Of a stretch of DNA of 64,000 bases, positions 20,150-29,000 are shown piece by piece. Within the stretch, counting starts at the first letter, position 1. Each line of letters starts with the position of its first letter. The stretch covers positions 4,774,001-4,838,000 of the forward strand of contig UYFQ01000001.1 in NCBI GenBank assembly GCA_900617105.1, given 5' to 3'. The notes under the pieces are model-generated. The model had not been told where the DNA came from. It saw only the letters and a list, made by a program, of their open reading frames with translations, and ran no database searches. The position numbers were made by a program, and so were the translations under genes. This DNA is from Hydrurus foetidus. Taxonomy: Eukaryota.

Positions 20150-21589
20150 TCAACGACCCCGCTGCATGGGCACAACGTTGGTTACCCGGCCAGCAGCCAT
20201 GTCTTGCAGTAGCGCCAGACGGCTGCCCAGACGTTTGCAGGCTGCGCGCATTGGCCCTTCGTACTGGGCGCGTTGGTAGATGCGCTTGACCTTGCCCACC
20301 TCGGCGTGGTTTAGGCACTTTTCAATCACATCGGGGAGGGCACCGAGTTCTGCCATGGTGGTGGCCGCTGTACGGCGCAGGTCGTGCGATGTCCACTTGC
20401 CGCCGGGTAGCACCAGTGCGTCCACGTCCTTAGAGCGGCCGCTCATGGGCGCATCACCGGGGCGTTGCCTGTCGCCCACTTGCTTGGTCACGGTCTTGAC
20501 GCAGACATGGTCGGCAAAGTCGGGTTGATCTTTTTTAGCCTGCGTAGCCGGGAACAGCCAAGGTGTCAGGCCGGTGCTTTCATGCAAGCTCTTGAGTTGG
20601 CGCATAGCAAAGTCACTCAGCCAGATTTCATGCCGCTTGCCGTTCTTGGTTTCGGGCAGGGTCAGATCCCGCCGCTCAAAGTCCACATGCTCCCAGCGCG
20701 CAGCCAGCACTTCGCCGATGCGGGCGGCGATTGCCAGTTGAATCAGCAGCGCCAGTTGGCTGGTGGCTGCCAGCCCTGCACGGGGCAATTTCTGAAACAG
20801 CAGAATCATTTCGGCTTCGCTCAACACGCGGTCGCGCTCTACGTCGGCACCGATGCGGGCTTTTTTGACGCGGGCGGTGGGGTCGGCATCCACATAATCC
20901 CGATCCAGCGCGAAGCCAAACATCTGGCGCATGTCGGCCAGCGTCTTTTTGGCGGTGCGTACCATGTTCTTTGTCGGTGTGGCGCGTGATTTGATGGTCT
21001 CCACAATTTCCTGAATGTGCGCTTTACCCACGTCCGCCGCCGCTACGTTGCCGATGAGCGGGAACACATCGCGCTCAAAGGAGCGCTGCACCTCGCTGCC
21101 TTTGTCGGCGCGTTGGACCAGCTCCAGCCGCTGCCATTGGTCAAACAGGCTGCGAACAGTCATGCGCGCGGTCTTTTCGGCCAATGCTTGCAGCCGCAAT
21201 TGCTGCTGGTGCACAGCTTCTTGCCGGTCAGCTTGGATTTTGAGGAGCTCGGCCTCACGTTCGGCCGCCAGGCGCAGTTGGTCGGCTTCGCGGTCGGATT
21301 GCACTTGTTCACGCACAAGCTGGTTTTGTGCCACTGGGTCAATGCCGCTTTGAATCTTCACCCGCAATGCGTCACGGTCTTTGCGGATGGCGGTGATGTC
21401 GGCCTTTGGCCATGTGCCGACCAGCACTTCGCGCGACTTGCCGCCAAATTTGTAGGCGAACCGGAATTGAACCGAGACGGCACTGTCACGCGCCACATAG
21501 ACCTTGCCCTTGAGCGATCCACCATCAGTTAACCGGCGTCCGTGGTCCGCAGCATTCAGCGATTTGAGTTCCAACATCGTCAATGCCAT
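20150..21589 (-). CDS. Tyrosine recombinase/integrase (P4-like, N-terminal arm-binding domain)
   Basis: DGGSL..FAYKFGGK..GTWP arm domain; ARIGE, TKNG, HDLRRT, LNH and catalytic Y. Confidence 0.95.
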   Translation of the reverse strand: MALTMLELKSLNAADHGRRLTDGGSLKGKVYVARDSAVSVQFRFAYKFGGKSREVLVGTWPKADITAIRKDRDALRVKIQSGIDPVAQNQLVREQVQSDREADQLRLAAEREAELLKIQADRQEAVHQQQLRLQALAEKTARMTVRSLFDQWQRLELVQRADKGSEVQRSFERDVFPLIGNVAAADVGKAHIQEIVETIKSRATPTKNMVRTAKKTLADMRQMFGFALDRDYVDADPTARVKKARIGADVERDRVLSEAEMILLFQKLPRAGLAATSQLALLIQLAIAARIGEVLAARWEHVDFERRDLTLPETKNGKRHEIWLSDFAMRQLKSLHESTGLTPWLFPATQAKKDQPDFADHVCVKTVTKQVGDRQRPGDAPMSGRSKDVDALVLPGGKWTSHDLRRTAATTMAELGALPDVIEKCLNHAEVGKVKRIYQRAQYEGPMRAACKRLGSRLALLQDMAAGRVTNVVPMQRGR

Positions 21590-21777
21590 CGCAAACCCCG
21601 ATATTCCGCGCCGTCTCTGTTGTCCCCACTATTGTCCCAACCACAACACAAGCTTTGAGAGTGTCGCAATGGACGTTGTTGGATGACACCTTTCGTAGTG
21701 GTTGATTAAAATTCGTTTAAAAACATAGACTTAGATGAACTTTGGGATTTTGTGGTGGCTTGCTGGGCTTGCAAAAA

Positions 21778-21823
21778 TTGCATGGGGTGCAAGGGGTAGA
21801 AGGTTCGAATCCTTTCACACCAA
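21778..21823 (+). pseudogene. 3' half of tRNA-Pro(GGG), integration att remnant
   Basis: TTGCATGGGGTGCAAG anticodon arm and GAAGGTTCGAATCCTTTC T arm; no 5' acceptor strand or D arm upstream; adjacent to integrase. Confidence 0.85.
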
Positions 21824-22883: not shown

Positions 22884-23543
22884 ATGGCGATTTTTGTTCG
22901 TACTGAAGAAGGTCAAGAAGCTGCTTACAGCTCGCAGTCAGCTCTGCCGCGCAAATTAAAGTCGATTTTGAAGGTGATTGACGGTCGTACAACGGTAGAC
23001 GCGTTTGAGAAAAATCTCAGCTCCTTTGGTGATGTCAGGGCAATATTGCAGTCTTTGGATATGGCCGGACTCATCAAGCAGGTCGAGGGCGGCGGTGCTG
23101 TACCTGCATTGAATGCAGAGCCGACGCTAACGGCGGCGGTAGCGCCCAGCAAATCCTTTTTAGCGCCACGGCATGCGCCGCCCGCACGCTCAAACGACGC
23201 GGGACTTGGAGCGTGGACGCAGCCGCGAGCGCCAGCAATGGACGCATCTAACTCCATCAGCATGGAAAGCTGGCAGGCGTCCGAGTTGGCCACTCAGGCA
23301 ATGCCCGCTGCGCGGCAAATGCAAAGCCCGGCGCTGCAAAGCGTGGTGGATTCGATGTCCAATTTTGTGCTGACGTACCTGCCAGACCGATCGTTCCAAA
23401 TCCTCAAAGAATTTGAGGAGATCACGTCTTTGGAACTGTTAGCCGTTACGCTCGGCGGGTACGAGCAAATGGTTGCGGTAGTGGGCGAGCCAAGCGTGCA
23501 GCATTTAAAAGCGATCAAACAGGTATTGCGGGATAACTTATGA
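22884..23543 (+). CDS. Hypothetical protein, paralogue A (winged-helix-like N-domain, linker, helical C-domain)
   Basis: N-domain aligns without gaps to 23540 and 23912; ATGA-coupled to the next gene. Confidence 0.85.
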   Translation: MAIFVRTEEGQEAAYSSQSALPRKLKSILKVIDGRTTVDAFEKNLSSFGDVRAILQSLDMAGLIKQVEGGGAVPALNAEPTLTAAVAPSKSFLAPRHAPPARSNDAGLGAWTQPRAPAMDASNSISMESWQASELATQAMPAARQMQSPALQSVVDSMSNFVLTYLPDRSFQILKEFEEITSLELLAVTLGGYEQMVAVVGEPSVQHLKAIKQVLRDNL

Positions 23544-23878
23544 CCGGTTTGGCAGAGGTGGTTTTTAGCATTACCCCGGCCGGGTACACGGCGCTGCGCA
23601 ACACCACAGAGCCGATGGACTTGCGGCTGAAAACGGTGTTGACCTTGGTAGACGGCGTGTGCCCAGTTGCGCAGTACGTGCCGTACCTGATGGCTTTTGA
23701 TCCGCTGTCAGAGAAATTTTTTATTCTGGAACGTATGGGTTATGTCAGGCGCTTGGGCAGAATTGCCAGCAGCGCGGTATCAGGTTTTCAGGAATCGATT
23801 CGCGTTGGAACCTCTAAGTCGCGTTTGCCGCGTATCGATAAAGAGTCTAAAGAATCGGGTTTTATGCCCTCGGTTTAA
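23540..23878 (+). CDS. Hypothetical protein, paralogue B (N-domain only)
   Basis: VFSITPAG..LRLKTVLTLVDG..LERMGYV matches the shared domain. Confidence 0.85.
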   Translation: MTGLAEVVFSITPAGYTALRNTTEPMDLRLKTVLTLVDGVCPVAQYVPYLMAFDPLSEKFFILERMGYVRRLGRIASSAVSGFQESIRVGTSKSRLPRIDKESKESGFMPSV

Positions 23879-23911
23879 TTGGTCGCGACAACAAAAACAG
23901 TCAGGGGAAAT

Positions 23912-24484
23912 ATGTCAATCATCTACCGAAAATCACTCAAGGGCATCGACGAAGTTGCCTTCAAATCCAGCGGCTTGCCGCTGCGGTTGGTCAGCTATTT
24001 ACTAGCCGTTGACGGCGAGGCGTCGGTTGACCAATTAGTTGCGCGTTACCAAAACCTGCCATCCCTTCAAGCTGTACTTGAAGGTTTGGCCGGGCAGGGG
24101 TTTTTAGAGGTCGCGGGCGCGGCAGACAACGTAGTGGGCATTGGCCAAATGCGAGTCGGCAACGGTGCAAATATTGTTACCGGCTACAACAATGCGACGC
24201 CTCCGCAGCAGGCTTATGCGCCACCTACGCAGCAGCAATACCAGCCTGTCCAGCAACCAACCAACTATTTTCCCGAGCTGGAAAGCTACAAAGCCAACAT
24301 GATTCGCGACGTGACCGCGCTGCTGGGAAGCGATTCTGGGCCCGTGGTTTCGAAAATACAGGCCTGCAAATCCAAAGACGACCTGTTCGGCACGATGATG
24401 GGCATTAAAAAAATCGTCACCATTTACACCAACCGCGACACTGCTGAAAAGTTCGGCGCGCGATATATCAATTTGTCGGTCTAA
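23912..24484 (+). CDS. Hypothetical protein, paralogue C (N-domain, Q/P linker, helical C-domain)
   Basis: AGGGG RBS before ATG 23912; IYRKSLKG..LPLRL..LAVDG..LAGQGFL. Confidence 0.85.
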   Translation: MSIIYRKSLKGIDEVAFKSSGLPLRLVSYLLAVDGEASVDQLVARYQNLPSLQAVLEGLAGQGFLEVAGAADNVVGIGQMRVGNGANIVTGYNNATPPQQAYAPPTQQQYQPVQQPTNYFPELESYKANMIRDVTALLGSDSGPVVSKIQACKSKDDLFGTMMGIKKIVTIYTNRDTAEKFGARYINLSV

Positions 24485-24544
24485 CTTTTTTCAGACCAAC
24501 TTTTCTCCCGGTACTTTTTGTTTTCAATCGTTTAAGGAATTACC

Positions 24545-25291
24545 ATGCAATTTGACTTGATCATGGCCACGCAGTTTTCATTTTTAATGGGTTTTATCGG
24601 ACTCATTGGCGGCTTTTATTATTTTTCGGCTATCAAGAGTTCTCTACCGCTTGAGCACCAGTCCAATGCTGTGACGTCCGCAGTGTATTGTTTGATGGCA
24701 GCCATCATGTACGGATTTATCAATTACAAGTACGGCATTGGCACCGACGCGCTTGCCAAAGGCGACTACCCCACCGTGCTGCGCTATATTGACTGGTTGG
24801 TCACTACACCGCTGTTGGTGTTGAAATTTCCAGAAATGTTGGGCGGTGATGAAGCGCCCGCTGTAGCTTTGCTGGTGATTGTTGCTGACGTGCTGATGAT
24901 TTTGTTTGGCTTGGCCGGTGAATCTTCAATCAATGCGTCGAAGGGCTCCACATTAGTCGGTTGGGCGATGTTCGGCGTTAGCTGCCTGGCTTGGTTGTTC
25001 ATTATTTTCATCTTGTACACAGCCGTGACGAACGCCGCTGCAAACAAGCTTGGGCCGGTTAAAGTTGGTTTGAGTCGCCTTAAGTTGTTTATCGTATTGG
25101 GCTGGGCGATTTACCCGCTCGGCTATTTACTGACCTTGATTTCGAACTCACCTGATTTGCGCGTGGGCCGCGAACTTGTCTATAACATTGCTGACCTTGT
25201 AAACAAGGTGGGTTTTGGCATGGTGGCCATTTACACCGTTCGCCAAATTGTGCGCGAACAGAAAATCCGCGAAGCGATGCTGCAGTTGTAG
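24545..25291 (+). CDS. Type-1 microbial rhodopsin, DTK motif
   Basis: Seven hydrophobic segments; helix C RYIDWLVTTPLLVLK; helix F GWAIYPLGY; helix G ADLVNK with retinal-binding Lys; AAGGA RBS. Confidence 0.97.
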   Translation: MQFDLIMATQFSFLMGFIGLIGGFYYFSAIKSSLPLEHQSNAVTSAVYCLMAAIMYGFINYKYGIGTDALAKGDYPTVLRYIDWLVTTPLLVLKFPEMLGGDEAPAVALLVIVADVLMILFGLAGESSINASKGSTLVGWAMFGVSCLAWLFIIFILYTAVTNAAANKLGPVKVGLSRLKLFIVLGWAIYPLGYLLTLISNSPDLRVGRELVYNIADLVNKVGFGMVAIYTVRQIVREQKIREAMLQL

Positions 25292-25319
25292 TTTTTTACT
25301 GCTGTTCAGACATTTCTTC

Positions 25320-25358
25320 GACCCGGCCGGCCATTTAATGTGCCGGCCGGGTCTTTTT
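25320..25358 (+). terminator. Rho-independent terminator between rhodopsin and crtY
   Basis: 12-bp stem GACCCGGCCGGC/GCCGGCCGGGTC followed by TTTTT. Confidence 0.9.
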
Positions 25359-25417
25359 ATTTTTTGCAGGCCAACAACCCCTGTGGGCAAGGTCCGCGTG
25401 TTTTGCGAAGCCGGTGA

Positions 25418-26578
25418 ATGACTGAGAAAGTGACCGAAAACGATTGGGACATCTTGATTGTGGGCGGCGGCCTGGGCGGCTTGTCGCTTGCGGTAGAGCT
25501 GGCGCAGCCTGCGTATGCCCACTTGCGGGTGCTGGTGCTTGAAAAGCGCGCCAGCTACAGCCGCGACCGCACCTGGAGCTACTGGCAAACCCACGCTCAT
25601 CGTTACAGCGGCCTTGAACGCAAGCGTTGGAATGCCTGGCGTTTGAGCTACGAAGGAAACCACGCGCAGCACGCCAGCAAGCCTGCTTACTGCACGATAG
25701 ACGCTGATGCGTTTTACGAATTTGCATTGGCACAAATAGCGCTTGCGCCGCACGTGCAGCTCAAAATGAACGTTGCGGTTACCAGCGTTCAAACCCAGCC
25801 GCGGGCAACCGTGCAGTTCGCCGACGGCACAGCGCTTACAGCCGCTTGGGTGATGGACGGCCGGCCCAACCCAGCGCCGCTGCCAGACGCGTTGTGCCAG
25901 CATTTTGAAGGCTGGGAGGTTCAAACCGACGCTGACTGCTTTGACGACAGCGCCGTGGAGCTGATGAACTTTCAGCCCGCTACGCTGGGCTTGCACTTTT
26001 TGTACGTGTTGCCTTATGGGCCGCGTCAGGCCTTGGTGGAAAGCACCTGGATGTCGGCTTTTAACCACCAGCCCGACTACGCCGCCGAGCTGCGTGACTA
26101 TTTGCAAAGTCGTTACGGCGTGACCGACTACAAATGCGTGTACCGTGAACGCGGTTGCCTCGACTTGCAGGCACGCACGCGCCAACCCGAGGCAACGGAC
26201 GGCAGTAGCCGGGTGGTTGCCCTTGGTAAGGCTGCTGGCACGCTGCGGGCGTCCACAGGCTTTGCCTTTTTGGAAACCGTTGCAGAAGCGTGGCGTATTG
26301 CGCAGTGTTTTAGTGGGGTTCCGCTGGCTGATGTTAGGGTGCCGCCGTACCGCCGTGACTGGCTCGACGCGTGGATGGACAAAATTTTCTGCGACGGCTT
26401 AAAGGCCGACTGGCCACGTGCGCCGGAGTTTTTCATGGCCATGTTCAAAGGCATATCGCCTGAAACCTGGGTAAGTTTTTTAACCGGTCGCCCCAGCATG
26501 ATGCAGCGCTTGCAGGTCAGTTTGCAGCTGCCCAAACTGCATTTTTTGCGTGCGGTGCGCAGGGTTCTGGTGGGCTAA
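25418..26578 (+). CDS. crtY: Lycopene beta-cyclase
   Basis: IVGGGLGGLSLA FAD motif, DRTWSYW, QHFEGW, FLYVLP, ALVEST, STGFAF; lies between opsin and blh. Confidence 0.9.
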   Translation: MTEKVTENDWDILIVGGGLGGLSLAVELAQPAYAHLRVLVLEKRASYSRDRTWSYWQTHAHRYSGLERKRWNAWRLSYEGNHAQHASKPAYCTIDADAFYEFALAQIALAPHVQLKMNVAVTSVQTQPRATVQFADGTALTAAWVMDGRPNPAPLPDALCQHFEGWEVQTDADCFDDSAVELMNFQPATLGLHFLYVLPYGPRQALVESTWMSAFNHQPDYAAELRDYLQSRYGVTDYKCVYRERGCLDLQARTRQPEATDGSSRVVALGKAAGTLRASTGFAFLETVAEAWRIAQCFSGVPLADVRVPPYRRDWLDAWMDKIFCDGLKADWPRAPEFFMAMFKGISPETWVSFLTGRPSMMQRLQVSLQLPKLHFLRAVRRVLVG

Positions 26579-27511
26579 GTGAGGCGAGGGCAGGCGGCTC
26601 TGATTGGCTTGTGTTTGATAGCGCCGGTAGCACTGGCCATGGTGTGGTGGTTAGATACCACCCAGCCGCAAGCCGGCGCTTGGGCACTGGTTGGCTTGAG
26701 CTTGAGCGTGGGCTTTTTGCATGGCGCGCTTGATGCGCCGCTGTTGCAACGCAAATTCGCCAATCGCTCGGCGCTGCTGCGGGTGCTTACCGCTTACCTG
26801 GCCTCAGTTTTACTGCTGGGTTGGTGGCTTAGCGGCGCTATGGCCGTCGCTTTGGGGGTGCTGATTACCATGTCGATCTGGCATTTTGGCGAGCCGTACG
26901 GGCGTTGGGATGACCTGCCGCCATGGTCGGCTGGCTTGACTCGCATTGTGGTGGGCGGCGCGCCCATCATGCTGGCCGTGTGGCTTGCTCCCGATCAGCT
27001 TGCCACCTTGTTAGCGCCCGTGGTGGAGCCGGCTGCGCTTCAGGTCTGGCGCGTAGCAGCCATGGCTTGGTTAGTTTTGCTGGCGGTGTGGACGGTTGCC
27101 TGCGGCTTGCGTAATGCCCGAGCCGCGCAGCACGCCTGGTTTGAATTGCTCGGCTGCACCGCGGCCTACCTTGTGTTTTCTCCAGTAATGGCATTTGCGC
27201 TTTACTTCGGCATTTATCACGCGCCCGTTCATATTTGGCGGGTGTGGCGCGGTTGGGTTGCCAGCGACGCGCAGCCTACGGCTAAGCCAAGGCCTGCGCT
27301 GGTTGCGGCTGGTTTAGCAGCTACCTTGTTGGCTACGTGGCTGCTGGGCGCGGGGCTTTGGCTGTTGCTGAGCCCAAGTGTTTCTGCAGCGCCAGATGTG
27401 CCAAGCGCGCTGCGCTGGTTGATTGTGGCGCTGGCTGCAGTGACTGCGCCTCACTTGGTGTTGATTAGTGCCTGTTCAGATTTTTTGTCACGCAAAACTC
27501 GTGCTGTTTAG
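26579..27511 (+). CDS. blh: Brp/Blh beta-carotene 15,15'-dioxygenase
   Basis: Membrane protein with the four His motifs HGALD, WHFGE, YFGIYH, TAPH. Confidence 0.92.
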   Translation: MRRGQAALIGLCLIAPVALAMVWWLDTTQPQAGAWALVGLSLSVGFLHGALDAPLLQRKFANRSALLRVLTAYLASVLLLGWWLSGAMAVALGVLITMSIWHFGEPYGRWDDLPPWSAGLTRIVVGGAPIMLAVWLAPDQLATLLAPVVEPAALQVWRVAAMAWLVLLAVWTVACGLRNARAAQHAWFELLGCTAAYLVFSPVMAFALYFGIYHAPVHIWRVWRGWVASDAQPTAKPRPALVAAGLAATLLATWLLGAGLWLLLSPSVSAAPDVPSALRWLIVALAAVTAPHLVLISACSDFLSRKTRAV

Positions 27512-27532
27512 CCGTAAGGTAAAGCATTATTT

Positions 27533-27573
27533 GCTATTTAAAATATAGCTGCTCGCGCCCGTATTCATTGGCT
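27533..27573 (+). repeat. Family R motif
   Basis: GCTATTTAAAATATAGCTGCTCGCGCCCGTATTCATTGGCT after the blh stop. Confidence 0.9.
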
Positions 27574-28889: not shown

Positions 28890-28936
28890 CCTGTAGCCAA
28901 ACAAAATCGGGCGCGAGCAGCTATGAAAATAATAGT
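28890..28936 (-). repeat. Family R motif
   Basis: CCTGTAGCC..ATCGGGCGCGAGCAGCTATGAAAATAATAGT. Confidence 0.88.
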
Positions 28937-29000
28937 AGCTAAAAGCGCTTTGCAGTGTCAGTTTGCGGCGTGGCAATGGCTTTGGGCGAGAGCTGTCACC

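Follow-up and report, generated by a model that had tools for sequence, protein, structure and literature searches.

We analyzed a 64,000-nucleotide stretch of DNA (the window; positions 4,774,001 to 4,838,000 of the forward strand of contig UYFQ01000001.1, assembly GCA_900617105.1, deposited under Hydrurus foetidus), in which a rhodopsin gene (the opsin, 24545-25291) follows three genes for soluble proteins, here called A (22884-23543), B (23540-23878) and C (23912-24484), all on the forward strand. The A-B-C-opsin module is real and tightly linked, and we infer its function from its context: since the opsin gene travels with three soluble-protein genes, often beside an ordinary pump, the four genes likely form a light-sensing module. 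Our preferred reading, to which we give a probability of about 0.5, is that they are a conserved unit in Comamonadaceae that acts in light sensing, the rhodopsin being sensory and its adaptors soluble. All four genes are under purifying selection, with ratios of nonsynonymous to synonymous substitution (dN/dS) of 0.048 for the opsin (median of 59 pairs from 25 loci), 0.22 for A (median of eight pairs), 0.26 for B (21 pairs) and 0.12 for C (32 pairs). The module is apparently undescribed: no account of this opsin clade or of its A/B/C partners was found in the full texts searched, subscription journals lying outside that coverage.

The linkage was surveyed at 34 distinct loci of the opsin clade, the window included, after removal of five duplicates. 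The order A-B-C-opsin was observed in 29 of them, the opsin being cut by a contig end in two of the 29, and this order is fixed across four genera, while the flanks differ between genera and the set of carotenoid (crt) genes varies from absent at L183 to complete elsewhere. Two other loci (L004 and L268) are cut by contig ends and too short to judge. The remaining three (L254, L266 and L267) have a broken opsin, and all three are devoid of B and C; at L267, the initial portion of A directly adjoins the final 40 codons of the opsin. Among 121 genomes of the genus Polaromonas, the opsin and a full-length C orthologue occur in the same five, two more genomes giving weak N-domain matches only. Searches of ten genomes without an intact opsin, which included no positive genome, found no C and just two weak matches of the B profile to an N-domain. 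The domain shared by A, B and C was also absent from the loci of other rhodopsins, including DTK rhodopsins (named for an Asp-Thr-Lys motif) that bear the helix-B histidine (0/165, many of these loci being short or from other phyla). A metagenome scan, in which generic proteorhodopsins (PR) swamped the matches, yielded no locus of the opsin clade, and its loci were used as controls. The original prediction, made from the window alone, had named conserved A-B-C linkage at opsin homologues as a check of its reading, and both the ordered loci and the co-loss uphold that linkage. A similar picture could arise if the genes, functionally unconnected, had simply hitch-hiked together through the history of a small set of related genomes, and this fits the restriction of the clade to Comamonadaceae-type genomes (5/401 genomes of the family and, in a sample of the order, only G001 of 401) and gene trees that follow genera. 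Nevertheless, the constancy of gene order amid changing flanks and crt genes, together with the ten genomes in which B and C orthologues were not found save for the two weak matches, makes this explanation very improbable.

Judged by its sequence, the opsin (PF01036, E 5e-36) is an Exiguobacterium-type (ESR/DTK) rhodopsin without the counterion histidine. Its closest named relatives (83-94% identity) are mostly from metagenome-assembled genomes (MAGs) labelled Polaromonas, and its closest solved relative is ESR (PDB 4HYJ, E 2.3e-60), the next structure following at 6e-26. Residues were counted in the 120 best homologues (67-99% identity). R80, the helix-C motif residues D83, T87 and K94, D217 and the Schiff-base lysine K221 are invariant (120/120), whereas the position of His57 in helix B of ESR is occupied by Met in 96, Val in 13, Ile in six, Ala in five and His in none, the window opsin having M55; the His57-Asp85 counterion pair of ESR/DTK rhodopsins is therefore not found in this clade. 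Helix G extends into the tail, forming a C-terminal helix (aa 232-248) in which Q234, R237, R242, A244, M245 and the terminal L248 are kept in 115-120 of the 120 homologues, and this conserved tail is not common to the His-bearing DTK relatives L007 and L008. The clade resembles ESR and the DTK pumps in its best solved relative, its D-T-K motif and its linked retinal genes, but departs from them in its Met, Val, Ile or Ala at the His57 position, its near-invariant C-terminal helix and its A/B/C partners, of which the loci of His-bearing DTK genes showed none. At L009:3695-5063, a weakly Roadblock-like gene is directly followed by a DTK rhodopsin gene of Myxococcota in which Asn takes the place of His.

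The same residues admit a possible, though less probable, alternative, the main rival of the sensor reading, in which the opsin works as an ESR-type proton pump tuned to a different range of pH and A, B and C serve it as accessory proteins (for binding, localisation, assembly or gating) that send no signal onward. The full DTK pump motif is conserved and all pump residues but His remain; according to the available part of PMC11155677, H57M in ESR raises the pKa of Asp85 from 2.3 to 6.3, so that loss of His shifts the pKa of the acceptor without removing it. In addition, crtY and blh are each present in 28 of the 34 loci, and the opsin is the only rhodopsin found in four genomes. Against this stands the absence of such genes from the loci of other DTK pumps and proteorhodopsins (the 165 described above), as well as the usual presence of a second pump. 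In the carrier set (29 genomes whose opsin is intact or cut by a contig end), a clear second rhodopsin was found in 24, and every complete copy, with 24 loci checked, is a canonical proteorhodopsin with a DTE motif and His; it lies directly downstream in 19 of the 34 loci.

A, B and C are true paralogues with a predicted winged-helix domain. A stretch of 62 aa aligns without gaps across all three, as originally predicted, and their paralogy is supported by profile comparison (A-B 93.9%, A-C 88.5%, B-C 42.3%); the A-C value includes the helical C-terminal domain that had been proposed as common to these two. Protein A (219 aa) consists of a winged-helix domain (aa 1-68), a variable linker and the helical C-domain (aa 147-219), while B (112 aa) has the winged-helix domain and a short conserved tail (I99, S106, G107) and is without the helical C-domain. 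Protein C (190 aa from an ATG with a ribosome-binding site; a TTG start upstream, at 23879, was listed by the open reading frame (ORF) program) has a winged-helix domain, linkers with a conserved NVV...RVxNG motif followed by a Gln/Pro stretch, and a generic helical bundle. All three are soluble (maximum hydropathy 1.3) and gave no significant match in Pfam or NCBIfam. The model of the shared domain is a confident fold (predicted local distance difference test, pLDDT, 91.7) with a three-helix core and a small sheet, an alpha/beta winged helix, and nearly all top rows of the fold search are of winged-helix type (Z up to 6.9, root-mean-square deviation 2.1-3.1, 58-69 aligned residues), in agreement with the winged-helix-like domain first suggested. 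However, RRE domains share Z 6-6.9 with NPRL2/3 and PriA, MarR-like matches being among the ties too, so that no function can be read from the fold; RRE and non-RRE rows are level, and only one weak PqqD match was obtained among 77 domain copies. Foldseek gave no match with E under 0.001 and the ESM Atlas only unnamed clusters, and no chain like DUF742, DUF7882 or ASRT appeared among the rows of the fold searches, an absence that does not rule them out. PPR matches to the domain profile were rejected as repeat-summing artefacts. Predictions of A, B and C in complex with the opsin scored 0.12 and 0.13 against a mark of 0.34; with alignments unused and controls not folded, these values are evidence neither way.

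Given a winged-helix fold whose ties include MarR- and PriA-like matches, A, B and C might also be DNA-binding or co-regulatory proteins that would control the rhodopsin/carotenoid operon on another cue, without opsin contact. The location of A/B/C at the 5' end of the cluster and the occurrence of relatives near BLUF and response-regulator genes would suit such regulators. On the other hand, A/B/C track the opsin and not PR or crt, as L269 and L270 have PR and crt without A/B/C and L183 has A/B/C and the opsin with no crt genes; the domains are not basic (net charge about -1 to +3, near neutral), and no shared upstream motif was evident by eye among 23 leaders. We consider this explanation unlikely.

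Examination of the wider family gave no support to the three dedicated local paralogues originally envisaged, as its members occur widely with no opsin and A belongs to one subfamily and C to another. The shared-domain profile matches 175/401 genomes of the family and 22/300 of the class, and most members stand alone, often near genes for an AMP-binding ligase and an M61 peptidase. In trees of both domains, from which B was left out because it has no second domain, A groups with stand-alone A-like genes (bootstrap 95-97; the A-type subfamily) and C is apart from them, which points to recruitment rather than local triplication. The sister subfamily of C (bootstrap 97, with 10 of 11 members used) comprises 11 loci from several families (L196, L197, L202, L205, L272, L274, L276, L277, L278, L280 and L281), in which the gene follows, at a distance of no more than about 50 bp, a conserved gene for a protein of ~100 aa with three transmembrane segments (3-TM). 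This protein carries a PGG-x-x-G motif and has no Pfam match over the cut-off; together with its C-like neighbor it is a candidate two-gene membrane sensor. The tree positions of A and C indicate that the four-gene unit was assembled from two older subfamilies, one of which had a membrane protein as its partner beforehand. By eye, the 3-TM protein looked as if it might be homologous to opsin helices E-G, but the comparison gave a probability of 0.1%, lower than that of shuffled controls, and the idea was rejected. A single query for the 3-TM gene, run without a positive control, found it in none of five carrier genomes, and no longer fused family members (446-2000 aa) were found, which is weak evidence.

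Several family members have other neighbors of note. One to three extra A-like paralogues lie in tandem upstream of A at L250:9692-10348 and L253:2412-4493; a BLUF gene lies about 45 bp downstream of a family member on the same strand at L224:1007-2200 and L225:115-1396; and the member at L218 is located by a kinase and a response regulator. In the nearest genome (L232:4427-9936), an A-like gene is divergent from an operon of PAS, unknown, small-GTPase and Roadblock genes. The original prediction had linked A, B and C to DUF742 and to Roadblock/small-GTPase systems. Such an operon was seen this once, beside another family member, and nowhere else; no GTPase or Roadblock gene was noticed in the ORF lists of the opsin loci, of which no formal scan was made. 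The likeness to DUF742 found no support, as 0/77 domain copies match at E up to 1 with HMMER filters that drop weak matches. The available text of PMC4316618 describes winged-helix accessory proteins in signaling operons (CvnC/DUF742, MglA-Roadblock), and the likeness to A, B and C lies in a winged-helix accessory role and in the operon at L232.

Among known systems, the nearest likeness to A-B-C-opsin appears to be with Anabaena sensory rhodopsin (ASR) and its ASRT and with CryoRhodopsins and DUF7882, the opsin clade and the partner fold being different in both. ASR, of the xenorhodopsin clade, is co-encoded with ASRT, a single soluble beta-sandwich transducer; both systems combine a rhodopsin with soluble partner genes, but A/B/C show no Pfam similarity to ASRT. 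For CryoRhodopsins, the accessible part of PMC12227055 reports a small soluble DUF7882 gene by the opsin, a conserved C-terminal extension where docking is proposed to occur and, as a further proposal, a sensory function that leaves residual pumping. The adjoining small soluble gene and the conserved extension are shared, whereas the rhodopsin clade is another one and three winged-helix proteins stand here in place of one PH-like beta partner. DUF7882 (PF25355) had no match in A/B/C in a Pfam copy that may predate it. Proteo-SRs, as described in the part of PMC10519204 at hand, are sensory, closest to the DTK pumps and without the helix-B His, with a Y(T/C)M motif and Htr/Che neighbors. The opsin shares that kinship and the absence of His; assignment to Proteo-SRs was ruled out by its DTK motif in place of Y(T/C)M and by the lack of Htr/Che neighbors in the ORF lists of related loci, read by eye. 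Rhodopsins are present in Polaromonas MAGs according to the accessible portion of PMC9021309, and a lake opsin survey (bioRxiv 2022.08.01.502354) mentions, in its available text, non-DTE motifs in Rhodoferax without detail, its figures or supplements possibly including the opsin clade; a term search of the available part of PMC9601134 found no mention of DTK or ESR.

If A-B-C-opsin is a light sensor, light would change the cytoplasmic face of the opsin and the signal would leave probably via the conserved cytoplasmic C-terminal helix. C, which adjoins the opsin and is sister to partners of a membrane protein, would dock on the tail, and A and B would join C and relay the signal onward, the winged-helix domains acting as peptide- or protein-binding modules and not as DNA binders. 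The most likely targets would be the control of pigment, photoprotection or motility; crtY and blh supply retinal, and the DTE proteorhodopsin encoded by most carriers would account for bulk proton pumping. Peptide-recognition (RRE) and protein-interaction winged helices among the top fold matches (Z 6-6.9) may be counted for an adaptor role, and the near-neutral domain charge, the 3-TM-linked sister subfamily of C, the His loss and the conserved tail for a sensor. More tentatively, the opsin could be an ESR-derived pump turned receptor that signals via a heteromer of three recruited winged-helix adaptors, the general task of the family being to read membrane sensors by their cytoplasmic tails (that of the opsin here, that of the 3-TM protein elsewhere).

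A number of observations weigh against the sensor reading. The main ones are the intact pump motif, as the opsin may pump given its invariant D83, T87, K94, R80, D217 and K221, and the four single-rhodopsin genomes (in 4/29 carriers, 76-95% complete, a second rhodopsin was not found, and a fifth carrier has a weak fragment only). The four-gene unit has no conserved output gene, be it Htr, Che, a kinase or another. At L259, one of the 29 ordered loci, B is frameshifted beside an intact opsin. The carrier genomes are related and their counts are not independent events, and the co-loss could reflect single deletions of neighboring genes. Distance correlations with the opsin are 0.89 for crtY and 0.78-0.87 for A/B/C; because crtY scores as high, this Mantel test of co-divergence does not discriminate, and its proteorhodopsin comparison had 71 columns only. 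The family is common without opsins, and the Z-scores of the fold search are moderate, DNA-binding winged helices reaching the same values. The putative heteromeric transducer first proposed for this rhodopsin is backed by linkage, co-loss, the winged-helix fold and opsin features that fit specialisation, and opposed by the D-T-K pump motif.

Surveys class DTK-motif rhodopsins as energy pumps. Were this clade, carried by some Polaromonas-related bacteria often with a separate ordinary light-driven proton pump alongside, a sensor, it would be another switch from pump to sensor, and its transducer would be of a type that the literature searched did not show. It would offer a testable entry into the unnamed winged-helix family and, if the tail-reading adaptor role is true, give that family its first function along with a light-switchable handle. 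In addition, the clade is a naturally occurring variant resembling ESR H57M and is easy to express and assay.

ORF coordinates confirmed the predicted arrangement of six co-directional genes with an ATGA overlap of A and B and 60 bp between C and the opsin, the last two being crtY (25418-26578; lycopene cyclase family, PF05834) and blh (26579-27511; beta-carotene 15,15'-dioxygenase for retinal synthesis, PF15461, TIGR03753 over the cut-off). The strong terminator expected behind the opsin was recovered as a predicted 15-bp hairpin with a U-tract at 25320-25367 on the forward strand (z -5.5; 0/200 shuffles equally good); a simple terminator scan did not list it, and only weak hairpins were found inside A-opsin. 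It follows that crtY-blh may be a separate or a read-through transcript. A promoter scan called no sigma-70 promoter upstream of A, and two RNA runs gave two partial reads and no reads on the locus, which says nothing on expression. A public contig matches the sequence without differences.

At L243 (the same locus as L005), L245 and L247, two PAS-fold ORFs with a resemblance to PYP lie a few kb upstream of A-B-C-opsin-PR-crt, as does a BLUF gene at L243 and L245; this suggests a photosensory cluster. In the window, the six-gene cluster neighbors nudix and dctP genes, and a tyrosine integrase gene adjoins a 44-bp tRNA-Pro remnant (21778-21821; both within 20150-21821). As relatives have an intact tRNA-Pro at the same place, an integrated element is likely, the other end of which was not found within the window. 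Short intergenic repeats resembling repetitive extragenic palindromic (REP) elements occur at 27531-27573 and 28890-28937 and are common to many other contigs.

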